Below the pieces are notes generated by a model. The model had not been told where the DNA came from and ran no database searches. It worked only from the letters and a program-made list of their open reading frames with translations. A stretch of 64,000 nucleotides of DNA, from assembly GCA_044222185.1 (NCBI GenBank), contig JBGANV010000001.1, forward strand, positions 2,080,001 through 2,144,000, in the 5' to 3' direction. The position numbers were made by a program, and so were the translations under genes. This document shows, piece after piece, positions 21,522 to 55,935 of this stretch (positions are counted from its first letter, which is position 1; each line of letters opens with the position of its first letter). Source of the stretch: Planctomycetota bacterium. GTDB lineage: Bacteria; Planctomycetota; GCA-002687715; CAIWVZ01.

Positions 21522-21911
21522 TTGCGGCGCGTCACTGCGCCGCCAAGCAACTCCACGAGCGGCAGCCGTCCCCACGGCGGGCCGCTCGCTTCGTCGATGG
21601 GGCGCGGTTCAGCGGGATTCTCGGCGCCGCTCTCCGTGTTCGAACCGAACGGCGCGCCCTGGGCGAAGGTCGCACCGAATGGCCCCGGCAACATTCCCGT
21701 GCCGCCGTTCGGTCACATCCTGATCGATCCGTCCTCGTCCATCGTGCTTGCACCCGGCACGATCACACCACCGTCGGGCACCACCGTCACCGTCAACGTC
21801 CCGCCGAACCCCGCGCTCGCGGGGTTCTCGGTCTGGTGGCAGGCCCTCATCGTCGAACCGGCCGGACCCCGGCTCACGGGCGCCGTCGTGACGACCGTGC
21901 TCTGGATTTGA
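21522..21911 (+). CDS. Small ORF or remnant consisting mainly of the shared C-terminal domain
   Basis: Ends VNVPPNPALAGFSVWWQALIVEPAGPRLTGAVVTTVLWI, matching the C-termini of other exported proteins here; no signal peptide; start uncertain. Confidence 0.45.
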   Translation: MRRVTAPPSNSTSGSRPHGGPLASSMGRGSAGFSAPLSVFEPNGAPWAKVAPNGPGNIPVPPFGHILIDPSSSIVLAPGTITPPSGTTVTVNVPPNPALAGFSVWWQALIVEPAGPRLTGAVVTTVLWI

Positions 21912-22054
21912 AACCCGCGCCTTTGCGTCGACGCGTCGGCGCATGCTGACCAGGAACGCGCCACGACGCCGCGTGTCGCGGTCCCCGACCGCGCGCGCAG
22001 GCCGCGTAAAACGCCGGTCGCGCGGCGCTCATGGTGGATCGAAAGGTCACAACC

Positions 22055-24982
22055 ATGCACCACAGGCTCCTGCTCGTCGTCGCCTCGCTCGCCTTCCCGG
22101 CGGCGAGCCAGATGACTCTCGTTTCCATCTCCCCGCCCTCCGCGATCGTCGGAGGTCCCGGCTTCACGCTCTCGCTCACCGGAAGCGGATTCGCGTCGAC
22201 GAACGTCGTGCTGTGGGACGGTGGCACGCTCGCCACGACGTTCTCCAACTCGACGCACCTGACGGCCGCGGTCCCGGCGGCGTTGATCGCGACGGCCGGC
22301 ACCGCCACCGTCCGCGTCAGGCAACTCCTTCCGACGCCCACCTTCTCCAACTCCCTCGTCTTCTCCATCAACAACCCCGCGCCGGTCCTCGCGACCGTGA
22401 CGCCATCGACGTTGCAGGTCGGCGCCGCATCGACGACGCTGACGATCACGGGGTCGGCCTTCAGCCCCGCGACCGTCGCGCGCATCGGATCCACGGACCT
22501 GTCGACGACCTTCGTCAGCTCGACGGTGATCCAGGCCGTGGTCCCGGGCAGCCTCACGAGCGTCACGGGGAACGTCCAGTTCTCGATCTTCAATCCAGCT
22601 CCGGGCGGTGGCACCTCGTCGGTCGTGAGCTTGAGCGTGCAGAATCCGCTGCCGGTCCTCTCATCCATCAGTCCGAATCAGGTCGGCGTCGGGAACGTCG
22701 CGGTCACGATCGTCGCGTCCGGCAGCGGGTTCGTCCCGGGATCCACCGTTCGACTGGGCGCCGGTGCCTTGTCGACGACGTTCGTCAGCTCCACGCAGCT
22801 CTCGGCCATCCTGCCCGCGTCGGCCCTCGGGAACGCAGGAACGAGCCAGATCTCCGTCACGTCGCCGACGCCCGGTGGCGGCACGAGCCTGGGGCAGCCG
22901 TTCACGGTGACGAATCCGGCTCCGACGCTCTCGAGCGCGACGCCCACGGTCGTGCCCGCCGGCACGGCCACGACGCTCACGCTCGTCGGGACGGGATTCA
23001 ACGCACAGACCGCGGTGCAGGCCGACGGCGGCGTGTTGCAGACGTTCCTCGTGAGCTCCACGCAGCTCACGGCGATATTCGTCCCGTCGATCGCGGGAGT
23101 CGGCAACCTCGTGGCGATCACGGTCGTGAATCCGTCCCCGGGCGGCGGCACGACCGCGGCTCAGACGCTGGCGATCGGCAACCCGATCCCATTGCTGTCG
23201 ATCGTGACACCGCCCACCGTCACGGCGACGACGACCGGCTTTGGGATCGCCGTGATCGGTTCGAGATTCGTGCCGACGAGCACCGTCCAGTGGGACTCCA
23301 CCACACTCTCGACGACGTTCGTCAATTCGCAGCAGCTGCTGGCGACGGTCCCACCCGGCTTCGCGACGATCGCCGCCGCGCACACCATCGCGGTCTTCAG
23401 CCCGGCGCCGGCCGGCGGCGTCTCGTCGACGAGGACGCTGACCGTCGAGAATCCGGTTCCGACGCTCACGTCGATCGAACCTGCGGCCGTTGCGGTCGGG
23501 ACTCCGGCCCTCACCATGTCCATCGTCGGCGCGGACTTCGTTCCGTCGAGCTCTGCGTTGGTGGACGGCGTCCCGGTCACCACCACGTTCATCGACTCGT
23601 CGTCCCTGATCGCGACCGTTCCCGCGTCGGCGCTTCTCGATCCAGCGGTGCGCCTCATCGCCGTCTCGAATCCAACGCCCGGCGGCGGCGTCACGGCCGC
23701 GCTCAGTCTCACCGCGGTGAACGCGATCCCGAGCATCACCTCCGTGAGTGCGGTGCAACCACCCCTCGTGGTCGACGGCCCGGAGACGCTTTCCATCGCC
23801 GGCTCGGGGTTCCACGACTTCTCCGTGGCGAAGCTCGATGGCGCCGCGTTGGCCACGACATTCGCCGGATCGTTGACGGGCCCTGCGACCTTGACGGCAA
23901 CCGTTCCGGCCAACTTCCTCGGTGTGGGTGGGCCGCACCAGCTCACGGTGTTCAACTCCGGTAACGGCGAAGGAGAGTCGGCGCCCGTCACGATCGTCTT
24001 CGAGAACCCCCACCCCGTGATCGCATCCCTGTCCCAGGCGTCGATCCCGGGAGGCAGCACCGACACGACCGTCGTCGTGAACGGCTCGGGGTTCGTCACA
24101 TCGACGGTCGCGACGCTTTCGGGATCGCCGGTGGCGTCGCTCTACTTCGGCCCGGGGACCATACACGTCGTCGTCCCCGCGGCGTTGGAGCGGGCGTCAC
24201 GGCAGTTCTCGCTGGGACTGACCAACTCGGGGCCCGGCGGAGGCAGCACATCGACCCCGCTCCTCGTCACGGGTCCCGTCGTCGCGTCCGTGGTTCCCGC
24301 AGCGGTCCCCGTTCTCGCGCCCGGCTCGACGCCGGTCTCCCTGACCGTGACCGGCGGGCCGTTCCAGCCCTCGGACACGATCCACCTGAACGGCGCAGCG
24401 TTCGCGACGAACCACCTGACGGCACCCACGCTGACGTGCACGCTCGATCCGAACGTGCTCGTGGTGCAATCGCCCGGCGGATTCGCGCTCACGGTCGTCC
24501 GTTCCGGCACCGCGGGGCTCGTCGCGTCGAATGCGGTTGGCGTCGCCGTCGGTTCGCCCGACAACGCCGGGACCGTCACGCTCGCGCCGCGGGCGCCTCC
24601 GCCCGGACAGGGGTTCAACGTTCGCGCCGAGTTCCCCGTCGGCTCCGTGCCGTTCACGCTTCTCGCGGAGATTCCGGCGCCGACGGCGCTCCTGCTCTCG
24701 ATCACTCCGTCGTTCGAGCTGGCGCTCGGGCCGGGCCTCGCGTCGCCCATCGTGCTCGTGGACGGGCTCGGTCTCTTCGGCCCCGCGTCGGGTGCGGTCA
24801 CCGCACCCGACGACCTGTCGGTCCTCGGCGGACCCGCCGCCCGCAGCCTCTTCGAGATCCCGGGACTCGTTGCGCCGTCGCCACCGCTCGGCACCACGTT
24901 CTCGCTCGCGGCGATCTTCGCGGACCCCTCGTCGCCGATCGGGCTGAACGTCACCCACATCGGTGGACCGCACGGAATGTGA
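22055..24982 (+). CDS. Secreted surface protein with about 9 IPT/TIG repeats and the shared C-terminal domain
   Basis: Signal peptide; repeated P.L.SI.P....G...LT..GS.F...LSTTFVSSTQL.A.NP.PGGG units; SD GAAAGG. Confidence 0.85.
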   Translation: MHHRLLLVVASLAFPAASQMTLVSISPPSAIVGGPGFTLSLTGSGFASTNVVLWDGGTLATTFSNSTHLTAAVPAALIATAGTATVRVRQLLPTPTFSNSLVFSINNPAPVLATVTPSTLQVGAASTTLTITGSAFSPATVARIGSTDLSTTFVSSTVIQAVVPGSLTSVTGNVQFSIFNPAPGGGTSSVVSLSVQNPLPVLSSISPNQVGVGNVAVTIVASGSGFVPGSTVRLGAGALSTTFVSSTQLSAILPASALGNAGTSQISVTSPTPGGGTSLGQPFTVTNPAPTLSSATPTVVPAGTATTLTLVGTGFNAQTAVQADGGVLQTFLVSSTQLTAIFVPSIAGVGNLVAITVVNPSPGGGTTAAQTLAIGNPIPLLSIVTPPTVTATTTGFGIAVIGSRFVPTSTVQWDSTTLSTTFVNSQQLLATVPPGFATIAAAHTIAVFSPAPAGGVSSTRTLTVENPVPTLTSIEPAAVAVGTPALTMSIVGADFVPSSSALVDGVPVTTTFIDSSSLIATVPASALLDPAVRLIAVSNPTPGGGVTAALSLTAVNAIPSITSVSAVQPPLVVDGPETLSIAGSGFHDFSVAKLDGAALATTFAGSLTGPATLTATVPANFLGVGGPHQLTVFNSGNGEGESAPVTIVFENPHPVIASLSQASIPGGSTDTTVVVNGSGFVTSTVATLSGSPVASLYFGPGTIHVVVPAALERASRQFSLGLTNSGPGGGSTSTPLLVTGPVVASVVPAAVPVLAPGSTPVSLTVTGGPFQPSDTIHLNGAAFATNHLTAPTLTCTLDPNVLVVQSPGGFALTVVRSGTAGLVASNAVGVAVGSPDNAGTVTLAPRAPPPGQGFNVRAEFPVGSVPFTLLAEIPAPTALLLSITPSFELALGPGLASPIVLVDGLGLFGPASGAVTAPDDLSVLGGPAARSLFEIPGLVAPSPPLGTTFSLAAIFADPSSPIGLNVTHIGGPHGM

Positions 24983-25195
24983 CGTCGGAGTCGAGGCCGC
25001 GGTGGCCGAGTGACCGCCGCGGTCGCTCGGCTCCGGCACTCCCGCGCACGACGTGCTACCGCCGTCGGCTCGGTGTTCCTGCGACTCATGTCCGCCTTCG
25101 CCTCGACGACGCGCCTGGGCCGAATCAGAAGCCGGACCGCTCGGCCTCGCACCCCGGCTAAGATCGCGACCGTCTCGATCGCAGGGAGGTGCCCC

Positions 25196-25882
25196 GTGAA
25201 AGTCGCCATCATGATCGCCGTCGTCGCGCTCGGCCTCGCGGGCTGCGGAGCCCCCGACTCCCGCCCCACGGCTGGCGCCTCGCCCGATGCGGCCGCATTC
25301 GCCCAGCTCCCCATCGAACTGACGGTGAACCAGCGGACGACGACGCCCCTTCCCGGATCCGTGGGCCCGATCAGGCTCACGATCGACGACGTCACGCGCG
25401 GTCAGGTGATGACGAGCCTGGCGGCGCACGAGGGGACGACGCTGCTCGCTCCGACGTCATTGCGCGAGGGCGATACCGCCCCGTTCCAGGCCGGATCGCG
25501 TACGTATTCACTGCGCCTGAAGACGCTCACCAACAACCTGATCGGAAACGACTCGGCCACGTTCGTCGTCGAGCCCGATGGCGCCGTGAGGCCCGCGAGC
25601 GCGACGATCGAGACGCTGATCACCGCCGTCGCGAACATGGACGGAGCGGTGTTCATCCGGAATGGAGCCGAGTACTCGGCCGGGGACGCCGCAGATCACC
25701 TCCGTGCCAAATGGCAGGCTGCTGGCGAGGCCGTGACCACCGTCGACGAGTTCCTGCGGCAGGTCGCCGGTGGTTCCTGGTTGACGGGAAAGCCGTATCG
25801 CGTGCGCTTCGCAGACGGTTCGACGCGCCTGCTCGTCGACGTTCTGCGTGAGCGCCGCGCGGAGATCGAACGCCACGACTGA
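25196..25882 (+). CDS. Lipoprotein with C-terminal DUF5329-like domain
   Basis: Lipobox LAGC; FIRNGAEY..A.DHLR.KW and EF...AGGSWLTGKPY motifs; SD GGGAGG. Confidence 0.75.
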   Translation: MKVAIMIAVVALGLAGCGAPDSRPTAGASPDAAAFAQLPIELTVNQRTTTPLPGSVGPIRLTIDDVTRGQVMTSLAAHEGTTLLAPTSLREGDTAPFQAGSRTYSLRLKTLTNNLIGNDSATFVVEPDGAVRPASATIETLITAVANMDGAVFIRNGAEYSAGDAADHLRAKWQAAGEAVTTVDEFLRQVAGGSWLTGKPYRVRFADGSTRLLVDVLRERRAEIERHD

Positions 25883-25942: not shown

Positions 25943-26413
25943 CTAGAAGAACGACGCCGCCAGGCCGTTCGACATCTGGAAGCTGCTGCAGAGGCAGAAC
26001 GTGTCGAAGTGCCGTGCCGCGCCCTGAACGTAGACCACGATGCCGGCCAACGGTGGGCCGGACGGGAGTTGGAGCATCAACGTGTCACCCGACGACGACG
26101 GCCACTCGAGCACCGCGATGTCGGGATTGACGAGCAAGGAGCACCCCGTCCCGATCGTCGGGAGCGGAACGTTCGCAGGTGAGGTCCCCAGGGCGAACAC
26201 ACGCCCCACGAGATAGACGTTGCAGCAGACGGGCGACGCCTGAACGCGCAGACTGACGGCGCAGGCGTTGGGGTCATACGACCCCGAAAGGATTGGCACG
26301 ACTCCGAACGGGGCGCATCCCGCGCCATAGGACGAGAACGAGACGCCCGAGAGGTTGTTGCACTGCCCGAGTGCTGCTGCGCACACGATGACGGCGAGGA
26401 TTGCTGACTTCAT
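25943..26413 (-). CDS. Small secreted Cys-rich protein (signal peptide plus shared C-terminal domain only)
   Basis: MKSAILAVIVCAAALGQ; YGAGC...GCSLLVNPD...LPSGPPLAGIVVYVQG...MSNGL. Confidence 0.75.
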   Translation of the reverse strand: MKSAILAVIVCAAALGQCNNLSGVSFSSYGAGCAPFGVVPILSGSYDPNACAVSLRVQASPVCCNVYLVGRVFALGTSPANVPLPTIGTGCSLLVNPDIAVLEWPSSSGDTLMLQLPSGPPLAGIVVYVQGAARHFDTFCLCSSFQMSNGLAASFF

Positions 26414-26584: not shown

Positions 26585-28834
26585 ATGAGGTTGAAGCGCG
26601 CCGCTTTGGCGTTCACACGAACGCCGAAGCGCTGGATCGACGGCTGGAGCCCGTGCCTCGACGCACGACGGCGCGGGCCCACGCCCGTGCTTCGAGCCAT
26701 CGTTGCGACCTTGTGCTTCGCCACGGCGTCGGCCGGAGAGCTGTCCGCCCAAGCCCACACGCGCGGAAGCGGTCAGATCATCCTCGCGTCGCGCTGGAAC
26801 GACGAACCGGTCGTGGAAGTCGCCGCCGGAAAGGACCACGCGTTGGCGCGCCGCGGCGACGGCACCGTCGTCGCCTGGGGGCGCAACGTCGAAGGCCAAT
26901 GCAACGTGCCAACCCTTCCGCCGGGCGTCGTCTTCGTCGCCATCGCCGCGGGCGGCAACAACTCGCTCGCGAAACGAAGCGATGGATTGGTCGTCGAGTG
27001 GGGCGACAACACGTTCAATCAGAACACGGTACCGGCACCGCCAGCCGGAACGTCCTACGTCGAGTTCTCCATGGGCCTGAGCTTCACGCTCGCGCGCCGG
27101 AGCGACGGAGTGGTCAGGGGCTGGGGTGCAACGACGTTCGGACAGGCCAACGTCCCCGCTCCAGCGGCGGGGGTGACGTACACGAGGTTCAAGGCCGGCG
27201 CCTACCACGGGATCGGCCTGCGCAGCAACGGAACGGTCGCGACGTGGGGGCTGTGCCTCGGCGGCGCATGCGCCGTCCCGTCACTGCCCGGTGGCGTCGT
27301 GTGGGTGGACGTCGCCGCTGGCGAAGGCTGGTCCACGGGACTGCGCAGTGACGGCTCCGTCGTGGGCTGGGGAAGCGGGACGACGTCGTCGATCGCGGCA
27401 TCGCTGGTGCCCGCTCTTCCACCAGGCGTGTTCTATGACGCCGTCCTGACGGGCTGGGGATTCCCGGTGGCACGCCTCACCGATGGAACCTACGTGGGTT
27501 GGGGTTACCTGGGAGCCAATGCTCCCGCTCCGCCTCCCCCGCCTGTTGGGATGTCATACACGAGCGTGGGCAGCGGGCGGCTCGCCGGCGTTGCTGCGCG
27601 ATCCGACGGACTTCTCGTCCCCTTCGGTGACAACGCAGCCGGGCAGATGAACGTGCCGGCGCTCCCGCCCGGGATCTCGTACTTCGATGTGAAGACGACC
27701 TCGACCCACACCCTCGCATTGCGAAGCGACGGCATCGTGGTCGCCTGGGGGACCAACGCGAACGGCGAGCTCTTCGTCCCCGCCTTCCCGCCAGGCGTCC
27801 TCGGCACCAAGATCGCCGCGGGTGCCACGCACAGTGCGGCCCTGCTGAGCGACGGGTCGATCACGGCCTGGGGCAATACGCAGAACAACCTCACGTTCAC
27901 TCCGCCGCTCCCGCCGGGGGTCACGTACACGGACGTCGCCGCGGGAGACCTGCACGACTTCGCGCAGCGCAGCGACGGAACGGTGGTGGCCTGGGGTGAC
28001 AACACCTACGGGCAGTTGAACATCCCCGCTCCGCCCAGCGGTCAGACCTACAACGTGATCGCCGCGGGACCGCGCAGCAGCTTCGCGGCGCGCAGCGACG
28101 GCGTGATGCTCGCGGCCGGGCAGAACCTCTACAACAACCTGAACGTGCCCGCGCTTCCGCCGGGCGTGTTCTACGTGCAGGTCGCGGCCTCGCTCGAGCA
28201 CACGCTCGCGCGGCTGAGCAACGGCACGGCCATCGCGTGGGGTTGGAATGCCTACGGCCAATGCAACGTGCCCGCGCTCCCGCCGGGAGTGAGCTACACC
28301 GACATCGCGGTCGGGAGCCAGTTCAGCCTGGCGCTACGCAGTGACGGCGTACTCGTGACCTGGGGGAACAACGGCGCGCACCAGCTCGACATCCCCCCGC
28401 TGCCGGCAGGCCTCGTGTACACGGGCATCGCCGCACGCGATGCGGAGGTCATCACGCTCGACAGTCCATCCGTGCCCGGCGTCCTCGAGCTCCACTTCTC
28501 ACAGCCATCGGGGCCCGGGACCGGCCTCGCCATCGCCGAGTTCGGCCTCACGGCGGGTCGCGAGTACCGCACGATCTTCAGCCTGGATCTCTGCCCCGCG
28601 GGTCCCGGGACGGGCCCGCTCGGCGGGTTGTGTTTCAACAACCTCTCGTTCCTCGGACTGCAGGTCCTCTACCCCGTCAACGCATTGCCGTTCCACTTCG
28701 CGCCGTTCGGGCCCGTCAACGTCTTCGGACCCTATCGGCTCCAACCGGGGCTCACGTTCGAAGCCATCACCGTGGACGTGACGAACGGGGTCCCGGGGCT
28801 GATATCACCAGCCGTGCGGTATTCGGTGCTCTGA
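26585..28834 (+). CDS. Secreted RCC1/BLIP-II-type beta-propeller repeat protein
   Basis: About 13-14 repeats of roughly 40 aa (AAG..H.LA.RSDG.VVAWG.N..GQ.NVPALPPG); SD GGAGG before ATG 26585 (GTG 26687 is an alternative). Confidence 0.88.
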   Translation: MRLKRAALAFTRTPKRWIDGWSPCLDARRRGPTPVLRAIVATLCFATASAGELSAQAHTRGSGQIILASRWNDEPVVEVAAGKDHALARRGDGTVVAWGRNVEGQCNVPTLPPGVVFVAIAAGGNNSLAKRSDGLVVEWGDNTFNQNTVPAPPAGTSYVEFSMGLSFTLARRSDGVVRGWGATTFGQANVPAPAAGVTYTRFKAGAYHGIGLRSNGTVATWGLCLGGACAVPSLPGGVVWVDVAAGEGWSTGLRSDGSVVGWGSGTTSSIAASLVPALPPGVFYDAVLTGWGFPVARLTDGTYVGWGYLGANAPAPPPPPVGMSYTSVGSGRLAGVAARSDGLLVPFGDNAAGQMNVPALPPGISYFDVKTTSTHTLALRSDGIVVAWGTNANGELFVPAFPPGVLGTKIAAGATHSAALLSDGSITAWGNTQNNLTFTPPLPPGVTYTDVAAGDLHDFAQRSDGTVVAWGDNTYGQLNIPAPPSGQTYNVIAAGPRSSFAARSDGVMLAAGQNLYNNLNVPALPPGVFYVQVAASLEHTLARLSNGTAIAWGWNAYGQCNVPALPPGVSYTDIAVGSQFSLALRSDGVLVTWGNNGAHQLDIPPLPAGLVYTGIAARDAEVITLDSPSVPGVLELHFSQPSGPGTGLAIAEFGLTAGREYRTIFSLDLCPAGPGTGPLGGLCFNNLSFLGLQVLYPVNALPFHFAPFGPVNVFGPYRLQPGLTFEAITVDVTNGVPGLISPAVRYSVL

Positions 28835-30100: not shown

Positions 30101-31588
30101 ATGTCCAGGATCGCCAACGTCCGGCGCGCGCTCGGCGCCGTTCTCGTCACCCTCTGCATCTCCCTCGGATCGACGGCCTCTGCGCAGTCACCCATCGGAA
30201 CCGGGAACCTGGTCGCCGTCCGCATCGGCGACGGCGTGGCCGCGCTCAGCGGTTCGTCCCAGGCGACGTTCCTGGACGAATTCACGACGGCAGGAACTGC
30301 CGTGCAGTCCGTCGCCATGCCGACGGCGGTGAGCGGAACCAACTACCGGCTCACGAACTCGGGCACGGCGACGTCCGAAGGCAACCTGAACCTGTCGACC
30401 GATGGCCGCTACTTGATCCTGTGCGGGTACGACGCGGCGCCCGGAACGACCGGCATCGCAGCCACGACCACCAGCGGCGCCACCGCCGTCCTCCGCGTGA
30501 TCGGCCGCGTCGATCGCAACCTCGGCATCGACACGACGACGGGTCTCACGGCGTACTCCGCCACGAACATCCGCTCGGCGACGAGCGTCACGGGCAACGA
30601 TTTCTGGGTCGGTGGACCGACGAACGGCGTCAGCTACGTGCCCAGCGTCGGCGCGACGACCTCCACCCAACTCGTGACGAACCCGAACAACATCCGCGTC
30701 GTTCGGATCTTCGGCGGCCAGCTCTTCACCGGTTCCGCCACGGGTGCGTACCAGGGCGTGAGCGCCGTGGGCGTCGGGACTCCGACCACGTCGGGACAGA
30801 CTCTCTCGCTCCTCCCGGGATTCCCCACGGCGACCGGTCCATCGGCCTATGACTTCTTCTTCGCGGACGCGAACACGCTCTACGTGGCCGACGACCGCAC
30901 GAACGGGTCGGGCGGGATCCAGAAGTGGGTTCTCACGGCCGGGACGTGGACGCTCCAGTACACGCTCGCCATCGCGCCGACGGTCGGCTGCCGCGGCCTC
31001 ACCGGCGTCGTCTCGCTCGGCACGACCACGCTCTATGCCACCACGACGGAATCGAGCGCGAATCGCATCGTGACGGTGACGGATGCGGGCGCGGGATCGC
31101 CCTTCACCGTTCTCGCCACGGCCGCCGTGAACACGGTGTACCGCGGCCTCCGCTTCATGACGCCTCTCGCGAGCGTGAGCGTCGTCGGAACCGGCTGCCC
31201 GGGTACGGGCTCGCTCGTTCCCACGCTCTCCACGTCGCAGCTGCCGTTCCTCGGCAACCTCGGTTTCTCGGTCGACGTCGCGCAGGGTGCGTCCGGCTCG
31301 GCGGCCTTCCTCTACGTGTCGCTCGGGACGGATCCGAACGGCGTGGCCGTCGGTGGCGGCTGCACCGTCTACCTCGATTTCCCGAGCCTCCTGATCCTGC
31401 TCCAGGCGAACATCACGCCTACGGGCCCGGTGCCCACGGGCATCGCCGGTGACGCCGTGATTCCGTTCCCGATCCCGGATCTGGCGCAGCTCGCCGGTCT
31501 GCACGTCGGGTTCCAGTCGGCGATCGTGGATGCCGGCTCACCGCTCGGGCTCACGCTCACCAACGCGCTCGACTGCGTCCTGAACTGA
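30101..31588 (+). CDS. Secreted Thr/Gly-rich beta-rich protein with the shared C-terminal domain
   Basis: Signal peptide; GNLVAVRIGDG, SEG.L.LS.DG and YVADD motifs; ends IPDLAQLAGLHVGFQSAIVD...LTNAL; SD CAGGAG. Confidence 0.85.
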   Translation: MSRIANVRRALGAVLVTLCISLGSTASAQSPIGTGNLVAVRIGDGVAALSGSSQATFLDEFTTAGTAVQSVAMPTAVSGTNYRLTNSGTATSEGNLNLSTDGRYLILCGYDAAPGTTGIAATTTSGATAVLRVIGRVDRNLGIDTTTGLTAYSATNIRSATSVTGNDFWVGGPTNGVSYVPSVGATTSTQLVTNPNNIRVVRIFGGQLFTGSATGAYQGVSAVGVGTPTTSGQTLSLLPGFPTATGPSAYDFFFADANTLYVADDRTNGSGGIQKWVLTAGTWTLQYTLAIAPTVGCRGLTGVVSLGTTTLYATTTESSANRIVTVTDAGAGSPFTVLATAAVNTVYRGLRFMTPLASVSVVGTGCPGTGSLVPTLSTSQLPFLGNLGFSVDVAQGASGSAAFLYVSLGTDPNGVAVGGGCTVYLDFPSLLILLQANITPTGPVPTGIAGDAVIPFPIPDLAQLAGLHVGFQSAIVDAGSPLGLTLTNALDCVLN

Positions 31589-34657: not shown

Positions 34658-34819
34658 GGGGCAAAGGATGCCCGTCAAGGCGGTGCCGGACAAGAAGATG
34701 CGGCCGAACCCGCTCAGGTGTAGAGTCGCGACCAGACTCGGGCTTCCGGCGTCGGCATCGCGATTCTGCGGACACCGCCAACACTCCCCGCGGCTGCGGC
34801 AACGACTCCTGCAGAAGCC

Positions 34820-37800
34820 ATGAACACGACGCCTCCCATGCTCGATCAACTCCTCCACCACGCAGGTTGGGCCCATCGGCTCGCTCGACGGCTCGTGCGC
34901 GACGCCGCCGCGGCGGACGACGTCGTCCAGTCGACGTGGTGCTCGGTGGTGCGTCGAGGCGCGGAGATTCGCGTCGCGCCGAGAGCGTGGCTGACGGGTG
35001 CGATCCGGAACGCCGCCGCCGAGTGGCGCCGTGCGGCGCAACGCCGTGCGCGCCGCGAGGAGCGCGCCGCGACTCGCGAAGGAGTGACGCTCGACCCGGC
35101 AGAGATCGCGCAGAGAGCCGAAGGGCAGCGCATCCTCGCCGACGCCGTGACGACCCTCGACGAGCCGTACCGATCCACCGTCATGCTTCGCTACTTCGAC
35201 GACCTGTCCGCCGCCGACATCGGACGCCGACTTGGTGTCCCGGCGGCGACCGTCCGGTGGCGCCTGATGAAGGGATTGGATCTGCTGCGCGAACGCCTCG
35301 ACGAGCGTCATCATGGCGATCGTCGCGCGTGGTGTCTGATCTTCATCCCTCTCGCGGGGCGTCCTCTGCTCCTGGCTTCGCTGAAGGCCGGCCTGATCCA
35401 GGCCGGCAAAGGAGCCATGGTCATGAAACCCGCGACGAAGGTCTCGGCTGCCGCAGTCCTGCTCATCGCAACGCTCGGCACGGCGTTCCTGCTCACCCGC
35501 GACGGAGGCGACGATCTCCCGCGCTCACGACCCGCGACGGATGCCGGCGCGGGCAGAATCGTCCCCGTCGCTCGCAGCGAGCTGCGCGCGCCAGCGGATC
35601 CAGTGGTGCCGTCGCCATTCCGTGAGACCGACCCCAAGCCCGCCGCCACGGGTGCCGTTGCGTCCGCGGCAGCGGGGGCGTCGGTCCACGTCGTGGGGCG
35701 GTGTCTGGACTCCGACGGTCGTCCGATCGCCGGCGCCCTGGCCTTCGAAGCGCGCTTCCCGGAAACGCTCCGAGCGATGACGACTGCCGACGGGCGGTTC
35801 GACTTCCGGCTCGAAGACGCGGCGCTCATCCGATCGCTCGGTCTCGATACCCAGGAGCAGGATGGGCGGTTCGTCATCACGGCGGCCGGTCATGCGCGTG
35901 CGGTCCGCGGTGGTCGCGTTCGCGTGGGGACGCTGACCGACGTCGGCGACGTGGTGTTGAAGCCGGGCGGGTCGCTCCAAGGGCGCGTCGTCGGCGACGC
36001 TGGCCAGCCGATCGCCGGGGTGCTCGTGGTGCCCTGCACAGCCGATTCCCGCACCGGGCCCGACACTCCGACTCCCCACGTGGGATTCGAGGAGGATCGC
36101 ATCGAGGCGCGCGCCGTTCGCTCTCTCATCGGCCACCTCGCCGGCTCGATGACGAACAGCGAGTCAGAACAGGCCGCCGTGCGCTCGGCGCTGGGCGACG
36201 ACCAGGAGTTTGGCGTGAGTCGCCCGTGGGAGGTCGCGTCCGCAATCACGCGCGCCGACGGCACGTTCCAGGTAGACGGGCTGCCGGAAGGACCGACGCG
36301 AATTCACGCCACGAAGCCCGGATGGCTCGGTACGACCAGCGAGCCCGTCACCATCACCGCGGGGCGCACGGCCGAGATGCCCGAGATCGAGATGCCCCCC
36401 GAGGGTGGAAAGAAACACGTACTCCGGGGCCGCGTCGTCGACTCGGGTGGCCAGCCGGTCTCCCGACCGTGGGTCGACGTCGGGTTCAAGTCCACGTCGC
36501 CGCACGACGGCTCATCGAGGTTCGCGCAGCATGCGACGAACGAGGGCCATTTCGCCGTCTCGACGAACCTCGACGGCGCGTGGACGTTCCGCGTGCGGGA
36601 CAAGTCGGGGCGGCTGGGATCCGCGTGCGTGCCGAACGTCGGGTGCGAGACCGAGACGCTCACGATCACGCTCCCGCAACCGCGCTCGTTCCGGGTGCGA
36701 GCGACCCACGCGGGCAAGCCGATCGACGGGTTCGCCGCGACCCTCGTGGCGAAGGACTCTCCCGAAGACGCGACCGCCGCGTCTTCGGACGCGCTCGGTC
36801 ATTTCGAGGCCAGCGCAATCCGCGACGGCTGGCTGTCGGTCACGATCCCGGCCGAACCGTTCGCCGTCGAAGTGGAGGCGCCGGGGTTCAAGCGTCGCCG
36901 TTCGCCGGTGCTGACGCCCGAGACCGTCGGTGATGAACTGACGCTCGATCTGCTCCGCCTCGGCTCGTTGCACGGGCGGATCTCCAGCGCCGGCGTGGCC
37001 GTAGGCAACGCGTCCGTCGTCGTGCATCAGGCGCACGACGAAACGACGAGCGCGATGATCAACGGGTTTCTCTCGTGGGTGGAGACGCCGTCCGTCGCCG
37101 AGGGACGAACCGACGCGAACGGCGCCTACGACCTCCCCGTGCGAACGGCGGGCACGTACGTCGTCGAAGTGGTCGCGCCAGGCTTCCCGCGGACATACTC
37201 CGAGCCCGTCGCGGTAGATCCCGCGATCGGCGCGACTCACGACGTGAGAATCGCGCACGGTGGGGTCATCCGCGGGCGAGTGATCACGGCGCCTGGCCGG
37301 AGCCCGGCCGGAACGATCGTGGGCGTATCGCAGGGTGGGCCCGACGCTGAAACACGCCGAGTCCAAGCCGACGGCTCGTTCGCATTCGAGAACCTCGCCG
37401 AGGGACCGTGGATGGTTCGGGTTGTTCGTCGTGAGGTCACGCCGGACCGGACGTGGAGCGTCACGCTGAAGAAGCGCCCGCCACCGTTCGCATGGGACTG
37501 CCGGGTTCGCGCAGGCGAGACGACCACATTCGACGTCGACTTGAGTGCATCCGGCACCCCGTGCGTCGTCGAAGGTGTCGTGCCGACGCAGCTCGCGCCG
37601 AAGGCCGAGTGGACGGCTGCGCTGGTGACGACGGAAGACCCGCTCGGATACAGCACCCGCACCGTCAAGGGCACCGTCGCCTTGGACGGCACGTTCAGGA
37701 TCGACGCCGAGGGCGCGGGAACGGCCACCCTGCTGCTCACCGCTGGCGGCGGCTCGGCGCCGCGTGTCAAGATCCGCGACGAGGTCTTGCTGCGCCCGGG

Positions 37801-38065
37801 GGCGATCCGTTGGACGGGGATCACGCACTTCGGGACGCTGCGGGTGGGGGGCCGGTCGGGCGGCGACGTGCGCCACGTCCTGCGGCGCGATCCGGGCCTG
37901 ACGGTCGAGACGATGGTGGTCAGGGATCCGACCGGGAATTTCTTACCAGCCATCGTCCCCGCCGGAGCCGCGGAACTCACGCGAAAAACGGCCGATGGCG
38001 AGGGGCCGTCGGCGGTGCCCGTCGTCATCGCGACGGAGGGCACCCTCGACTTCCAGATCCAGTGA
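34820..38065 (+). CDS. ECF sigma-70 factor fused via a TM helix to multiple carboxypeptidase-regulatory-like (Ig) domains
   Basis: Region 2 (RLARRLVRD..ADDVVQ.TW) and region 4 (LDEPYR...LRYFDDLS..DIGRRLGVP.ATVR); TM VSAAAVLLIATLGTAFLL; repeated GRV.D..G.PI.G and T.ADG.F motifs. Confidence 0.88.
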   Translation: MNTTPPMLDQLLHHAGWAHRLARRLVRDAAAADDVVQSTWCSVVRRGAEIRVAPRAWLTGAIRNAAAEWRRAAQRRARREERAATREGVTLDPAEIAQRAEGQRILADAVTTLDEPYRSTVMLRYFDDLSAADIGRRLGVPAATVRWRLMKGLDLLRERLDERHHGDRRAWCLIFIPLAGRPLLLASLKAGLIQAGKGAMVMKPATKVSAAAVLLIATLGTAFLLTRDGGDDLPRSRPATDAGAGRIVPVARSELRAPADPVVPSPFRETDPKPAATGAVASAAAGASVHVVGRCLDSDGRPIAGALAFEARFPETLRAMTTADGRFDFRLEDAALIRSLGLDTQEQDGRFVITAAGHARAVRGGRVRVGTLTDVGDVVLKPGGSLQGRVVGDAGQPIAGVLVVPCTADSRTGPDTPTPHVGFEEDRIEARAVRSLIGHLAGSMTNSESEQAAVRSALGDDQEFGVSRPWEVASAITRADGTFQVDGLPEGPTRIHATKPGWLGTTSEPVTITAGRTAEMPEIEMPPEGGKKHVLRGRVVDSGGQPVSRPWVDVGFKSTSPHDGSSRFAQHATNEGHFAVSTNLDGAWTFRVRDKSGRLGSACVPNVGCETETLTITLPQPRSFRVRATHAGKPIDGFAATLVAKDSPEDATAASSDALGHFEASAIRDGWLSVTIPAEPFAVEVEAPGFKRRRSPVLTPETVGDELTLDLLRLGSLHGRISSAGVAVGNASVVVHQAHDETTSAMINGFLSWVETPSVAEGRTDANGAYDLPVRTAGTYVVEVVAPGFPRTYSEPVAVDPAIGATHDVRIAHGGVIRGRVITAPGRSPAGTIVGVSQGGPDAETRRVQADGSFAFENLAEGPWMVRVVRREVTPDRTWSVTLKKRPPPFAWDCRVRAGETTTFDVDLSASGTPCVVEGVVPTQLAPKAEWTAALVTTEDPLGYSTRTVKGTVALDGTFRIDAEGAGTATLLLTAGGGSAPRVKIRDEVLLRPGAIRWTGITHFGTLRVGGRSGGDVRHVLRRDPGLTVETMVVRDPTGNFLPAIVPAGAAELTRKTADGEGPSAVPVVIATEGTLDFQIQ

Positions 38066-38863: not shown

Positions 38864-39262
38864 AGCGCCAGGCTCTGCATGGCCGGACGGCAGGGCTCCA
38901 GCCCTGCCGAGAATGCCCACCGGGCTTCATCGGCTGCACGCAGCACGCCGCACCGGCCGACGACACTCATCGGGCGCAGGACTCCTCGTCGATCCTCCCG
39001 GCAGGGCTGGAGCCCTGCCAGCCAGCCACGCGCAGCGTGGCGTTCCGGCGCGGCAACACTCACGTGGATCCGCTGCAAGCAGCGCCAGGCTCTGCATGGC
39101 CGGACGGCAGGGCTCCAGCCCTGCCCGGAGCGGCGACACTGATCGAGGCCGCGCCTCTGCATCGGTCCGGCCGACGACACGCACGCACGGATTGAACGGT
39201 CACCTTCAAACCCGGCAGGGCTGGAGCCCTGCCAGCCAGCCACGCGCAGCGTGGCGTTCCGG
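38864..39262. repeat. Tandem REP-like inverted doublets (BIME/REPIN-like)
   Basis: 20-nt palindrome GGCAGGGCT(CC/GG)AGCCCTGCC at 38889, 39000, 39106 and 39214 in alternating orientation; 45-nt unit A at 38864 and 39081, 52-nt unit B at 38997 and 39211. Confidence 0.85.
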
Positions 39263-39516
39263 GCGCGACAGCCAAAGTGGAAAAACGCGGCGGGGGTGGC
39301 TGGGGCGTTCGGGTATTCGCCAATTGGCGCGAGGGCGGAGTGACGAACGCGGACCTGCGACTGAGGCGGCGGCGGCGAGCGCTGAATCCAATCCGGCACC
39401 CTGGTGCAGTCGATCGACGCCGACTATTCTCCTGCCTCGAAGCGTCGGCACGGTCGCCCGCCACGCTTCTCGACGGCGCCCCACCCGCCGATTTCGCGCG
39501 CGACGTCCCGCTCGCC

Positions 39517-42500: not shown

Positions 42501-43872
42501 CCCCAGCTTCGATCCCTACGCCCAGTATCTGCCAGAACACGTCACGGCGCAGTGGCTGATCCACGCGTTCCGCACGACGAGCCCGTTGCATGAGCGCATG
42601 TGCCAGTTCTGGCACGATCGGCTCGCAGTCAGCATCGGCAACCTCGTGGACCAGAAGCGGCACTGGGGCCCGATCCACCAGGACATGATCCGGTTCGGCG
42701 CGACCCCCGGTGGCGGCGCGCTGGGCAACTTTCGGACGCTGCTCGTGGACTTCGTTCGCGACCCCGCCTGCCTGGCGTTCATCGATGGTTTCGAGAACTT
42801 CAGCTTCGCGCCCAACGAGAACTTCGCTCGCGAGTTCATGGAGCTGCACACGCTCGGGATCCTCGACATCGCCACGGGACAACCGAACTACACGGAGACC
42901 GACGTCCGTGAGTGCGCACGCGCGTTCACGGGCTATCGACCGACGTGCTACCCGGCGAGCTCGCCGACGCCCACGTGCTACCCGAGCTTCGTGCCGTTCT
43001 TCCACGACACGGGCGTGAAGACGATCCTGGGACAGGTCGGCAACTTCGACGACGCCGGCGTCGTCGACGTCGTTCTCGGTTATGCATCCAACGGGATCCC
43101 GGGCCAGAAGGCGTCGCGATATCTCGCAAAGAACCTCCTCCGCGCGTTCGTCATGGACGCGCCGTCGCTCTCGCTCATCGACGAACTCGCCACGATCATC
43201 CGCTCCAACAACTGGGAGCTGACGCCGGTGATGAGCGCACTGCTCCGTTCCAACGCCATGTTCTCGCCGGCCGCGCGACGGTCGATCGTGAAGAGCCCGG
43301 TGGAGGTGGCACTCGGCATCGTGAAGACGCTGAAGGTGCCGGTGCAGACGCACGACATCGTGGCGCCCTCCTACGAAGGCATCCGGTACAACCTCGCGTT
43401 CATGGGACAGGTCCTCGGTCAGCCCATCGACGTGAACGGATGGCCGTCCGGTCTGGACTGGCTCACCGAGTACTCGATGATCCGGTACATGGAACTCGTC
43501 CGGAGCATGCTGAACCTCGCGCGAGCGCCGACGAATCCGGCGACGCTCACGGGTGCATTCCCCGGCATCCCGCCCACTCCGACGGACATCACGAAGTTCC
43601 TTCCGCCCATCAGCGCGCGCACCGGGACGAACACCGTCGCCTACCTCGCGAAGACGCTCGACGTCGACCTCGCGACCTCACCAGCCAGCGGGGCGTCGTC
43701 CTCCGAGTTCCAGCTCTTCGTCGATTACATCGATCATCAGGCTCTCTACTCGGCGACGGTGCCCTACGTCCTCGGCGGCACGCCCTTCAACGGAGACAAC
43801 CCCAATCACCTCGACAAGCTCTGGAGTACGGTGATGCTCTTCCTCCTCCACCCGGACTTCCAGAAGCTGTAG
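39517..43872 (+). CDS. Large secreted protein: two DNRLRE-like domains, cadherin-like Ig, three PKD-like domains and C-terminal DUF1800
   Basis: ITSAVLQLY...RPKL.V.Y-type unit twice; W.Q..GP PKD-like repeats; DUF1800 motifs HLLRRMG, LHERMCQFWHD, PNENFAREFMELHTLG, YTETDV.ECARAFTG, KSPVE. Confidence 0.88.
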   Translation: MPTRRRCTVPVGVVFLCLVSVLKAQTTVTFQAGGAAGTTNTLCRSCYINQTAAITGGSAWVAESNTLVIQNQGGVGLVDFPDVIGTGSGRIPPGSTITSAVLQLYCLSANGTLSSARTITCTPIKDMDRLGTWREPEIPTTVATGVEQGVMWRRRNRYRDASGQLTDDVPWDLGTSTGPSLANDPSIVAAFPTIVSSFTSTPSSGTTGINLFHTWNVTTAVSFWAQGLPNQGFHLSSSSTQALNYASDDHATVAQRPKLVVTYVPPGPGVQPFNHVPVLGNVGALSTTVGVDIPIILAAADPDPTPLEFLITTNPLKGTIVGTPPYITYRPNPGATGADSFAWTARDQVTTAYPQTVAINIATSASTVTATFQEGVAPAANLAVGATKNCSTDFVAAPGPQRCINDIEVRIIPDYRQGFLQFPQLIGSGVGQVPAGSNVLSARLELKTKDIWTAGSPERVIQLRRILDPLARGTSWTEPPTLTPIEPTGCTSCAVSFSYPDSTQTSQPWHIPGGDVHPYEGSSFTITPTESGQIWKSIDVTNAVRAWASGEPNFGWQIRMPNLNASASGIVLWTDDATAPADRPRLSVSYRPAGPLAGAPPHVIAGPAQLVFSDQTVTLDGQGTTYPGGTLASTIWLQVAGPAVQLSSTSSMTTTFTAPHVAGTSNVELRFVLGVIDNTGHYAADTVRIIVQPQPGSGSIPSPTVSAGANRTDPELTTVTLNGTASGGTGAQNLSVRWTQLSGPHVIMTGAQTLTPSFITPPLAVPSTPLVFDLAVTDDGVTPPLVSVVHDTITVTVTNAFNSPPNPSTAGTPSTVESGSWMVLDGSSSTDPQGQVLSFAWSQVSPSSPAIPLSAYVTHPSVTAAHTPLLAPQVAAPTVFTFHLVVSDGELSASTNVSVTVTPSPQPFQGTNSMTPYRDQLSREEAQHLLRRMGTGWHPDDVAQVRSAGLAATVASAVVPAPRLVGGQLSPALQEALFYASTVSFPFLGPPPIFNPSFDPYAQYLPEHVTAQWLIHAFRTTSPLHERMCQFWHDRLAVSIGNLVDQKRHWGPIHQDMIRFGATPGGGALGNFRTLLVDFVRDPACLAFIDGFENFSFAPNENFAREFMELHTLGILDIATGQPNYTETDVRECARAFTGYRPTCYPASSPTPTCYPSFVPFFHDTGVKTILGQVGNFDDAGVVDVVLGYASNGIPGQKASRYLAKNLLRAFVMDAPSLSLIDELATIIRSNNWELTPVMSALLRSNAMFSPAARRSIVKSPVEVALGIVKTLKVPVQTHDIVAPSYEGIRYNLAFMGQVLGQPIDVNGWPSGLDWLTEYSMIRYMELVRSMLNLARAPTNPATLTGAFPGIPPTPTDITKFLPPISARTGTNTVAYLAKTLDVDLATSPASGASSSEFQLFVDYIDHQALYSATVPYVLGGTPFNGDNPNHLDKLWSTVMLFLLHPDFQKL

Positions 43873-43883
43873 GAGCCAACGTC

Positions 43884-45197
43884 ATGACTCTCTCCCGTCG
43901 AAAGTTCCTCGGTCGAGTCGCCGCCGGCGTCGGCGCTGCGGCCCTGCACCCGATCTTCGCGTCCGCCGCCGCTGCCGCTCCGGCCGTGCGCCGGCCCGGG
44001 CTCAACAATCTCGTTCTGCTCAACCTGGAAGGCGGGCTGGATGGTTTGTCGCTGCTGATCCCGCAGCCGTCGCTCCCGGCCTACGCCACCTACGCAAGCC
44101 GGCGCTCACGGATCATCCCGGATCTGGCTGGGGCACCACGAACGTTGAACGGTGTTCCGGATTACAAGCTGCACCCGTCCCTGAACGTCATCCAGTCCGA
44201 GTTCAACCTGGGCAAGTGCGCCATCGTCCGGAAGGTGGGGAACCCGATCCCCAACTTCTCGCACTTCTCGTCGAAGGACCTGATGTCGCTCGGTCGCAAC
44301 GACCTGAACCACCCGGATCACCGGGGATGGCTCGGGCGGGTTGCCGACGTGCACTTCACATCGGGGCCGCCGACGACGAATGCGCTTCGCATCGTCGGAC
44401 TCGGGGTTCCCCGGCTGTTGGATTTCAACTCGAACGTCGTGCGGCCGGTCGTCATCAACAACCTCAGCAACCTCGTCTCGTTCAACTACGTTTCCGCGAT
44501 GGAGAGCGCCTATCGGAAGGACACGATCCAGCAGATGCTGCCGCAGACGTTCGCGTCTCGAGGCCCCGCCGACGCATCGATCCGTCAACTGATGGCGCAG
44601 GCGACCGCGATGCAGTCACTGCTGGCCCCCGCCCTGAACGTCACGCTGCCGAACGCGGCCTCCTACCCGACGAACGACCTCTTCGCCGGCGCGCTGAAGG
44701 ACATCGCGCGGATGATCGCGCTGAACGTCGGAACGCGCATCTACTACGCCGGGACGTCGCAGTTCGACACGCACATCGGCGAAGAGAATGCGAGCTTGAG
44801 CGCCGGCAGCAAGCCCACGCTCACGATGCGTTTGAATGCCGTCATGCAGGCCCTCTCGGCCTTCGTGGCGGATCTGAAGTCGGCATCGATCGGCGCCTGG
44901 AACCAGACGGCGATCGTGCTCTTCTCCGAGTTCGGCCGTCGCAACTACGACAACGAAGCGGGCGGGACGGACCACGGGTACGGCAGCCACTGCTTCGTGC
45001 TCGGTGGAAGTGTGCTCGGCGGTCTGAAGGGCAACGGCCTCGTCACCGCCGATCTCACGTCGGACAACCTGCCCGTCGAGATCGACATCCGCGCCGTGTA
45101 CAAGGCGTGCCTGGGGAACTGGCTCGGCTTGGACCCCGTGCCGATCTTCGACGACTTCGTCGCCTCACCGCAGCAGCCTGCGTTCCAGTTGTTCTGA
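43884..45197 (+). CDS. Tat-exported DUF1501 protein
   Basis: MTLSRRKFL leader; L.GGLDGLS, SHFSS, FDTH, SEFGRR and GTDHG motifs; SD AGGAG. Confidence 0.9.
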   Translation: MTLSRRKFLGRVAAGVGAAALHPIFASAAAAAPAVRRPGLNNLVLLNLEGGLDGLSLLIPQPSLPAYATYASRRSRIIPDLAGAPRTLNGVPDYKLHPSLNVIQSEFNLGKCAIVRKVGNPIPNFSHFSSKDLMSLGRNDLNHPDHRGWLGRVADVHFTSGPPTTNALRIVGLGVPRLLDFNSNVVRPVVINNLSNLVSFNYVSAMESAYRKDTIQQMLPQTFASRGPADASIRQLMAQATAMQSLLAPALNVTLPNAASYPTNDLFAGALKDIARMIALNVGTRIYYAGTSQFDTHIGEENASLSAGSKPTLTMRLNAVMQALSAFVADLKSASIGAWNQTAIVLFSEFGRRNYDNEAGGTDHGYGSHCFVLGGSVLGGLKGNGLVTADLTSDNLPVEIDIRAVYKACLGNWLGLDPVPIFDDFVASPQQPAFQLF

Positions 45198-51363: not shown

Positions 51364-51366
51364 CGC

Positions 51367-54160: not shown

Positions 54161-54393
54161 GGTTCCGCTCGGCGGCCGCATGCCGGTCGAGCGCGATTTC
54201 TTGCGCCTGAGCAAAAGTCGAGACCGTATCTCGCCCGATACTCATCCGGTCCCGATGTGTGGGACGCGCCACCGTCCTGGAGCGCATGTCCGAAGCGATC
54301 GACTCGACCGCACGCGGACGACCCGACATCCCGTGAAGTCCCGAACCCTCCCGGCGAGGGGCGTTCGCCGTCCACCACGACCGAGGTTTCAAC

Positions 54394-55935
54394 ATGTCAC
54401 GCAAGGCGGTTTTCACTCCACTGGCGCTCGTCTCATGTCTCGTCATCGCGGGCACCTCCGTCGCGCAAATCGGTGTGCCGGTGATCGTTCACCCGACGCT
54501 GTCGGCAACGGTCGGCGCGACCGTCGTCTTCAGCGGCTCGAATGATCCCTCGGCCCTCGCCGTCGACGTGCGCATCGACGGGAGCCTGAACACGGCGACG
54601 GTGAACGGCACCTCGTGGGCGTTCCGCACGACGCTCACCGACGGTGTCCACACGGTCGACGTGCGGGCGGGCGACGGCTCCACCTACAGTGCATTCTCGA
54701 CGGCACAGTCCATCACCGTGGACAGCGTCAGCGTGCCGGCGACCACCAGCCCGCCGTCTGGAGTCTCCCCGACGGCCGCCGTGATCGCCATGGAGTGGAG
54801 CTCGGCACCGACGGCGGTGTCGTACAACGTCTACCGCAACGACGAGCTGGTCGTGAACGTCGCCGTGACGTCGTTCACGGAAAGCGCCGTCCTCGCCGAC
54901 GGGACGTACAGCTACAGCGTCGCCGCGATCGACCAGTTCGGGTTCGAGGGATCGGTGAGCTTCCCCCGCGACTTCCAGCAGAATGCCACCTGGCCTTCCA
55001 ATGTGATGACCGTGGGGTCCCAATCCGGTGACGGCTTCGGAGAGATCGACGCCGCCGTGAACTGGATCGCGAGCCATTCGCTCACGAATCAGACCATCCT
55101 CGTTCACGACGGCTTCTACCAGCCGTTCGCGGCATACAACGGCGTCCGCATCCACGCCGTTCCCGGATCGTCGGTCGTGGTCGACACGTCGACGGCAGGC
55201 GCCATCGTCTCCGGCGGGGCAGCCTCCGAGAGCTTCGAGGTCGTCGGGATCTCGTTCGTCGGATCGGCGACGCCGCAATTCGACGTGAGTGGATGCTCCG
55301 TTCCCGTCGTCCTCGAGAGTTGCGGCTTCAGCGGCTCTGCCGGGACGGCCGTCAACGTCTCGGGCTCGCGCAGCGTTTCGATCCAACGTTGCACGATCTC
55401 CGGCAACGCTCCCCTCGTGCTCGGAGGTTACTCGCTCGCGTCCATGATCGCCGGCAGTCTGACCACGACGGGTACGGATGCCGTCACGCTCTCCCAGGCG
55501 TCGCAGCTGTTCAGCCAGGGTGCGACCGTCAGCGGCAACGCCTCGGTATCGCCGAACTCGCAGTTCGTGACGCTCGGCGGCACGCCGATGGAGATCGACG
55601 CCCCGTGCACGGTGACGGCTGGAGTCACCTTCCAGCTCACGTTCCGTGGTCCGGCCTCGCAGGTCTGGGGGCTGTTCGCGCACGGTACGACGAGCCTCGG
55701 CTACGCGTACAACCCGTGGGCTTCGATCGACGGTGCATTGCTGCTCGACTCGACGTCCGTCGTACTCGCATACGCGGGCATGACCGACGTGGCGGGCCAG
55801 GAACAGGTGAACGTGAGCATTCCGAACGACTCGTATTTCCGCGGGTACCCGTTGCAGGTGCAGGCCGTTGGCTTCGAGCCGACCGCGAGCGCGTGGAGCC
55901 TCAGCAACGAACTGACGGTCGTCGCAATTCCTTGA
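54394..55935 (+). CDS. Secreted protein: Ig-like, FN3-like and beta-helix-like regions plus the shared C-terminal domain
   Basis: Signal peptide; SYNVYRN and YSYSVAAID FN3 motifs; ends VSIPNDSYFRGYPLQVQAV...SLSNELTV; SD GAGG. Confidence 0.82.
   Translation: MSRKAVFTPLALVSCLVIAGTSVAQIGVPVIVHPTLSATVGATVVFSGSNDPSALAVDVRIDGSLNTATVNGTSWAFRTTLTDGVHTVDVRAGDGSTYSAFSTAQSITVDSVSVPATTSPPSGVSPTAAVIAMEWSSAPTAVSYNVYRNDELVVNVAVTSFTESAVLADGTYSYSVAAIDQFGFEGSVSFPRDFQQNATWPSNVMTVGSQSGDGFGEIDAAVNWIASHSLTNQTILVHDGFYQPFAAYNGVRIHAVPGSSVVVDTSTAGAIVSGGAASESFEVVGISFVGSATPQFDVSGCSVPVVLESCGFSGSAGTAVNVSGSRSVSIQRCTISGNAPLVLGGYSLASMIAGSLTTTGTDAVTLSQASQLFSQGATVSGNASVSPNSQFVTLGGTPMEIDAPCTVTAGVTFQLTFRGPASQVWGLFAHGTTSLGYAYNPWASIDGALLLDSTSVVLAYAGMTDVAGQEQVNVSIPNDSYFRGYPLQVQAVGFEPTASAWSLSNELTVVAIP

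Follow-up and report, generated by a model that had tools for sequence, protein, structure and literature searches.

In Bacteroidota, the C-terminal domain (CTD) of type IX secretion system (T9SS) cargo is a small beta-sandwich in which many leader-bearing proteins terminate, their passengers being unrelated; it is present in hundreds of copies per genome and in more than one tail class within one genome. Dockerin and SLH modules are small autonomous modules common to many exported proteins, mostly terminal although either end is possible, and they hold diverse enzymes and adhesins on a common surface partner. The bacterial pre-peptidase C-terminal domain (PPC, PF04151) is likewise a beta-sandwich; it is found at the C-terminus of proteins that Gram-negative bacteria secrete, and has been proposed to act in secretion or folding. 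To our knowledge, little has been established about the way in which Planctomycetota deliver their very large sets of exported proteins onto the outer membrane or past it. Here we describe C-terminal domains, termed tails, on six open reading frames (ORFs) within a 64,000-nucleotide stretch of the genome of a Planctomycetota bacterium (assembly GCA_044222185.1, contig JBGANV010000001.1, positions 2,080,001 to 2,144,000), referred to as the window. Judging from architecture alone, these tails most likely serve as a shared label by which exported proteins are retained at, or directed to, the cell surface via an as yet unfound partner.

The tails resemble T9SS CTDs in all of the features named above, and differ from them in being longer (~140 aa), unmatched in sequence, not strictly terminal, found also in stand-alone forms, and encoded in a genome without matches to SprA or PorV. 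They share with dockerin and SLH modules the autonomous, mostly terminal character, but differ from both in fold and sequence, match neither in Pfam, and have no known cohesin-like or polymer partner here. Compared with PPC, only one of 57 tails gave a match, at chance level (E 0.16), and the passengers are mostly not proteases. A preliminary description of the window had proposed a single tail on all six ORFs. New in the present analysis are leave-out statistics, the nested occurrence of one tail type within the range of another, class-wide copy numbers, samples outside the phylum, a covarying cysteine pair, and the equivalence of one tail's slot with that of the Soli_cterm domain.

Homology and fold of the tails

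Six-frame translation of the genome (7.08 Mb, 16 contigs, 93.8% complete) yielded 61,510 stop-to-stop frames of at least 60 aa. A hidden Markov model (HMM) scan recovered exactly six tagged frames in the window, here called A to F, and no further ones; the six tail strings quoted in the preliminary description were all present at their ORFs. A leave-out HMM, built from 196 paralogous tails from the rest of the genome with window members excluded, was searched against all frames and recovered the tails of A (E 1.6e-26), D (E 5.7e-16), B (E 7.7e-11), and C (E 1.7e-8), and did not recover E or F at E<=10. Reversed-database controls with all three HMMs used in this study (family 1, E-type, and F-type) gave no match at E<=1e-4, the best for the family-1 HMM being 0.14. 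Thus A, B, C, and D share one domain of ~140 aa, designated family 1, far beyond chance. Searches of the genome frames by phmmer with each single tail found many paralogues, nearly all stopping a few residues before the stop codon, and iterated HMMs started from A, B, or D all arrived at one set, which also contains C (the A and D sets, of 209 and 200 frames, overlap in 189).

By phmmer the tail of E formed its own family of 17 open frames, its 16 paralogous tails matching at E 1e-22 to 1.4e-9 and all ending within 10 aa of the stop. Profile comparison with hhalign aligned this E-type tail with family 1 over 94 columns at a probability of 93.7% (E 1.9e-7), which identifies it as a divergent family-1 relative. 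The tail of F had paralogues at 4e-30 to 6e-11, ending within 12 aa of the stop, and hhalign probabilities of only 17% against family 1 and 0.2% against the E-type, which makes it a separate family in the same position. At the level of sequence, the six tails are consequently not a single family: they are two unrelated ones, family 1 having two subtypes. The proposal of one shared tail held for A to D and, as a divergent relative, for E, and failed for F. Family-1 tails including the E subtype are ~140-165 aa long, and F-type tails ~130 aa.

Gene A (30101..31588, + strand) encodes a Sec-type leader, a passenger of ~340 aa without a Pfam or NCBIfam match, and a family-1 tail at ~31169-31585 with two cysteine motifs, the match stopping 3 aa before the stop codon. 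Gene B (54394..55935, +) encodes a leader, an Ig-like Big_13 domain (Pfam, E 2.3e-6), a beta-helix-like region in which Pfam Beta_helix scored under its cut-off, and a family-1 tail at ~55504-55932 of a subtype lacking the cysteine pair. Gene C (25943..26413, - strand) is free of a passenger, consisting of a short leader and the family-1 domain (~25952-26338). D (21477..21911, +) is a leaderless open frame of 144 aa holding the C-terminal two thirds of the domain (~21561-21899). Its match begins at HMM position 23, the first third of the domain is missing or degenerate, and the alignment to the HMM shows degeneration of the N-terminal half. The frame of D begins just past a complete gene for a triple-FKBP-type peptidyl-prolyl isomerase protein (20294-21493, +; NCBIfam BamJ, 190 bits against a cut-off of 100), which lies directly upstream and terminates normally in another frame. 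D is probably a gene remnant. Gene E (22055..24982, +) encodes a leader, nine choice-of-anchor-Z/TIG repeats, and the E-type tail at ~24473-24964. Its passenger, and the passenger only, belongs to the choice-of-anchor Z repeat proteins by membership of NCBIfam NF058597 (E 1.3e-147; 480 bits against a cut-off of 30; 9 repeats), and Pfam TIG matched it eight times. Gene F (26585..28834, +) encodes a long leader region, an RCC1-repeat propeller (ten matches to Pfam RCC1_2), and the F-type tail at ~28463-28828.

The N-termini of A, B, C, E (from ATG 22055), and F (from ATG 26585), as read from the translation, are basic and then hydrophobic with Ala-x-Ala-like sites at the end, in agreement with the Sec-type leaders previously ascribed to the five full-length genes. 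Likewise, none of the six frames has a C-terminal hydrophobic helix (maximum Kyte-Doolittle mean over 19 residues <=1.3 in the last 60 aa), as had been described for the five full-length genes. With no such helix and at most one Lys or Arg in the last 10 residues, none of the six frames has a tail of the PEP-CTERM transmembrane-helix type.

Among the 214 family-1 copies of the genome, the best-kept columns were G34 (86%), G90 (90%), P99 (90%), P102 (79%), G106 (77%), and Q112 (85%), which confirms the P..P.L.G.....Q core noted earlier. The two upstream cysteine motifs, for which a disulfide had been suggested, are real. Their columns co-occur, both being present in 65 copies, neither in 132, and only one in 17; A and C carry both and B and D neither. 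This covariation fits a disulfide in a subfamily including A and C. Charged residues are strikingly scarce in the domain (K 0.3%, E 1.2%, R 2.3%, D 3.2%), and its net charge has a median of -3.

Neither Pfam nor NCBIfam had a model that matched the tails, whether the six proteins were scanned at E<=0.1 or a set of 57 family-1 tails at E<=1. Recurrent FG-GAP matches in the 57-tail set were attributed to passenger sequence included upstream of the tails. The FlgD Ig-like model (PF13860) and the T9SS CTD models (TIGR04183/PF18962 and TIGR04131) were absent from these matches, in accordance with the earlier expectation that no such characterised family would be found. Sequence-profile matches in the PDB (antibody light chains and the C-terminal domain of galactose oxidase, E 0.026-0.55) were dismissed as chance or fold-level noise because the corresponding families gave no Pfam match. 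No publication on the family-1 domain or on TIGR03437 was found among the titles and abstract openings searched.

Machinery of described systems was sought in the whole genome. TIGR04183 matched none of the 9 candidates scored, control genomes not being matched either, and SprA (TIGR04189) gave no match in the 93.8% complete genome in a search made without a positive control. PorV (NF033710) and exosortase (PF09721) also had no matches in the genome. Eight genes with secretin domains (e.g. C1:1543071-1546090 and C7:76468-84972) exceeded the Pfam cut-off, including two pairs lying close together.

An AlphaFold2 (AF2) model of the last 150 residues of A, based on a 57-row alignment, reached a pLDDT of 95.7 and a pTM of 0.89 and shows about ten strands packed as a sandwich, plus one short helix. 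The model of the F tail (pLDDT 87.9, pTM 0.78) has a similar strand-helix-strand order. Foldseek found nothing in the PDB for the A tail at E<=1e-3. An exhaustive VIA search gave a best Z of 8.6 (root-mean-square deviation 3.3, 105 aligned) with macroglobulin domains of complement C3, followed by many immunoglobulin (Ig) and fibronectin type III (FN3) domains, a range that is uninformative; the best match of the F tail (Z 7.5) was to FN3 domains of cytokine receptors. As modelled, family 1 and the F-type are both generic Ig/FN3-like sandwiches. T9SS CTDs were not among the Foldseek matches shown or the top 50 VIA matches, which is no evidence that the folds differ. Adhesin domains with intramolecular ester bonds (Foldseek E ~7e-3 to 5e-2, TM 0.30-0.34) were considered and rejected, since the tails, set against the motif of those domains, retain a Gln and lack a conserved His. 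A complex prediction with three copies of the A tail scored 0.00 in both runs and is uninformative on self-association either way.

Copy number and distribution

At a domain threshold of E<=1e-6, the genome contains 214 frames with family 1, 46 with the E-type (11 of them also matched by family 1), and 70 with the F-type. The union of the three amounts to 319 frames, in 278 of which the tail ends within 15 aa of the stop. Tagged proteins represent about 5% of the proteins of this planctomycete group. Family 1 was terminal by this measure in 176 of 214 copies, the remaining 38 (18%) being N-terminal or internal. These non-terminal copies are followed by an unnamed module of ~220 aa in 12 proteins, by Kelch propellers in 6, by another propeller-like module in 4, and by assorted domains in the rest. 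The unnamed ~220-aa module is itself C-terminal and without a Pfam match, and is encoded by three tandem genes at C6:644344-648691 and at nine other loci. A FastTree phylogeny of the 214 domains required at least 19 changes between terminal and non-terminal position, compared with 34-36 in the five shuffles shown out of 200. In this weakly resolved tree of a short domain, the non-terminal copies cluster by paralogy yet form no single divergent clade.

Under the loose form of a weak leader heuristic, 156 of the 176 terminal family-1 members scored as leader-bearing, compared with 360 of 600 control genes; under a strict one the counts were 98 of 166 and 181 of 600. The view that carriers are Sec-signalled throughout the genome is therefore supported as an enrichment.

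A profile of 24 tails was searched against 1.84 billion public cluster representatives, of which 16,627 matched family 1 at E<=1e-3 and 1,728 at E<=1e-10. In the best 150 of these, the match ended within 5 aa of the C-terminus in 146, at 6-15 aa in 3, and lay at the N-terminus in 1. The expectation that matches would nearly always be C-terminal thus holds for the best public sequences and for most of the genome, and fails for the 38 copies described above. Upstream of the tail, the 96 of the best 150 representatives that were at least 300 aa long contained 42 different Pfam families, the commonest being FG-GAP (11), Kelch (5), RCC1 (4), LamG (3), beta-helix (3), and CBM96 (3). The nearest clusters in the ESM Atlas were all unnamed and without Pfam annotation, and most often came from Planctomycetota.

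The distribution of family 1 is restricted by clade. In a sample of 401 Planctomycetota genomes it occurred in 80 at E<=1e-5, following taxonomic families cleanly, with all genomes positive in some (4/4, 8/8, 9/9, 12/12, 8/8) and none in others (0/20, 0/23, 0/11, 0/16). The cultured model species appear to fall among those without the tag, which may be why it has no name. Every one of 23 species genomes from the window's class, which comprises one order, contained family 1 at E<=1e-8, with 5 to 123 matches each. Outside the phylum, a sample centred on a Thermoanaerobaculia-labelled genome had 1-3 matches in each of 4 of 151 genomes, and five genomes labelled as other phyla had none. The F-type was found in 35 of the 401 genomes, all within the 80 that were positive for family 1; each of the 23 genomes in the window's class has multiple copies, and the other positive genomes have 1-2. 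Furthermore, 6 of the order's 22 other genomes encode relatives of C that stand alone (32-42% identity, frames of 172-200 aa). Because related genomes lack independence, these counts are descriptions rather than tests.

The repeat region of E had 3,290 homologues, of which the best 120 were inspected for what they carry at the C-terminus. Seventeen end in Soli_cterm (TIGR03437, 'Solibacter uncharacterized C-terminal domain'), 0-7 aa from the end, and four, including E itself, end in the E-type tail. Regular expressions and a hydrophobicity test found no PEP-CTERM-like and no LPXTG-like ending among the 120, and one other tail of a helix plus basic residues. Soli_cterm is similar to the E tail in being lineage-specific, uncharacterised, and placed in the end slot of choice-of-anchor-Z repeat proteins, and differs in being about 225 positions long and not homologous to the tails described here. 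An alignment of the 17 sequences gave hhalign probabilities of 0.2% with family 1, 0.3% with the E-type, and 0.1% with the F-type, and its HMM matched nothing in the genome at E<=0.01; TIGR03437 matched one of the 57 family-1 tails weakly (E 0.0023). Homologous passengers with different lineage-specific terminal modules in one slot are what would be expected of an interchangeable address or anchor. The swap provides an analogy rather than a function, Soli_cterm itself being unexplained.

Possible roles of the tails

By analogy with dockerin and SLH modules, the tails may constitute a shared address or docking module, a reading that we favour tentatively and with slightly less than even confidence. 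According to this model, an uncultured group of Planctomycetota would add independently folding, low-charge Ig-like modules to proteins with Sec-type leaders, most of them of propeller, repeat, lectin-like, or adhesin-like type, and would place the module last in nearly all cases. Sec export would come first, after which the module would bind one shared envelope partner, either a protein scaffold or a surface polymer, and this binding would keep very different passengers at the cell surface. Export past the inner membrane, the surface location, and the existence of a partner are what we infer here. The many passengers found under one tail (319 frames; 42 Pfam families), together with the strong terminal bias, support a shared address module, and the optional covarying cysteine pair suits an oxidising, extracytoplasmic place. 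An export or docking signal had been suggested before; the many-passenger terminal architecture, from which alone the function is read, speaks for it, but no machinery was identified.

Several observations weigh against docking. Neither a partner nor a scaffold or receptor came to light, and the surface location of the proteins is a presumed one; the generic matches of the modelled folds tell nothing about binding. Export of the whole family is enriched but not proven, given the crude leader heuristic and its strict counts. No protein in the genome has two copies of the family-1 domain, so that no repeat scaffold made of the same module is seen. Furthermore, an end 0-5 aa from the stop is a stronger bias than we would expect of binding modules, and fits recognition of a free C-terminus.

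The last point leads to a possible but rather doubtful alternative, in which the tails are C-terminal export signals like T9SS CTDs and an outer-membrane translocon as yet undescribed recognises the folded terminal domain of periplasmic cargo. Removal of the tail and surface attachment of the cargo might follow, with family 1 and the F-type representing two signal classes comparable to types A and B of the T9SS. The strongly terminal position of the tail (no more than 5 aa from the end in 146 of the best 150 representatives, and no more than 15 in 176 of 214 genome copies) agrees with such a signal, as does the presence in the same genomes of two unrelated tail families, the rarer nested within the commoner (35 of 35 F-type genomes). 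Being large, folded, and leader-bearing, the cargo must cross an outer membrane by some route, and the genome, in which T9SS and exosortase genes were not found, does have its eight secretin genes. Against export signalling, no candidate translocon or processing peptidase was identified, there is no sequence relation to T9SS CTDs, and both the 38 non-terminal copies and the conserved cargo-free proteins are difficult to accommodate. These last two observations are the reason for preferring docking over a pure export signal: the non-terminal copies are scattered on the tree, lying N-terminal or internal to Kelch propellers or other modules, and proteins with only a leader and the domain, like C, recur as conserved forms in 6 of the 22 related genomes. 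The autonomous fold, optionally stapled by a disulfide, also favours the docking form.

It is less probable still that the tails are structural or folding-helper domains without a common partner, that is, a terminal Ig-like cap, spacer, or intramolecular chaperone of the kind proposed for PPC, spread by domain shuffling within a lineage that expanded its secreted repeat proteins. The generic Ig/FN3-like fold of both families, the flexible position of 18% of the genome copies, the failure to find a partner, and the concentration of conservation in Gly and Pro positions typical of fold maintenance (G34, G90, P99, P102, G106) are all compatible with a structural role. A plain spacer, in our judgement, would not be expected so close to the stop (5 aa or less in 146 of 150 sequences), nor as a conserved stand-alone exported protein, nor to be swapped for another lineage-specific terminal domain on homologous passengers, and the Gln of column 112 is kept in 85% of copies. 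That the similarity is an artefact of composition or of spurious frames has next to no probability. High GC (64-71% in the window) does produce many long spurious open frames, but the empty reversed-database controls, the passing of a codon-position GC filter for real genes by 187 of 214 family-1 frames, the 16,627 matching public representatives, and the confident AF2 models refute this explanation.

A more far-reaching proposal, which we regard as unlikely though worth weighing, is that these mostly uncultured Planctomycetota have an undescribed sorting pathway, defined by its C-terminal domain, in which one dedicated outer-membrane export or attachment machine, unrelated to the T9SS, reads at least two unrelated classes of tag on ~5% of the proteome. 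Were this true, the pathway would be a new system of secretion or surface attachment comparable in scale to the T9SS or the exosortase system. More generally, the tag may mark the surface proteome of these organisms by sequence alone, and could serve as bait for finding the partner or machine and possibly as a display tag; should the partner be a dedicated machine, a new bacterial sorting system would be at hand.

Neighbouring genes

Neighbourhoods were analyzed by BLAST of the neighbours only, on crude gene calls based on GC at third codon positions. Of 114 Ser/Thr kinases, 58 lay within two called genes of a tagged gene, compared with 767 of 3,475 genes of other kinds (odds ratio 3.7, p 4e-11). 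The genome has 115 such kinases by phmmer, none of them in the window, and 19 of 45 E-type genes have one nearby. Genes for extracytoplasmic function (ECF) sigma factors often adjoin tagged genes. These two kinds of gene were the sole enriched neighbours and, being regulators rather than components of sorting, were rejected as candidate machinery. The gene immediately 3' of E (24983-25879, +) encodes a probable lipoprotein with a C-terminal DUF5329 domain; it was rejected as a sorting partner, being single-copy in the genome and not recurring beside other tagged genes.

Eight of nine paralogous neighbour proteins of 570-810 aa share a further C-terminal motif, Phe/Pro/Asn followed by a Gly-Asn-Tyr-Asp-Trp-Thr-like element (e.g. 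C16:226860-228749, +; C1:819047-820876, +; C4:95142-97085, +), which may be a fourth tail type. Elsewhere in the window, one frame at 34724-38062 (+) has ECF sigma-factor regions 2 and 4 at its N-terminus and then a long region of CarboxypepD_reg repeats; it may encode a fusion between a sigma factor and an extracytoplasmic domain, or consist of two genes read in one frame. A DUF1800 protein encoded at 39196-43869 (+) has an N-terminal extension of ~1000 aa with Big_9, CBM96, and PKD-like domains, and its gene is overlapped in another reading frame by a frame matching DUF1501 (42912-45197, +).

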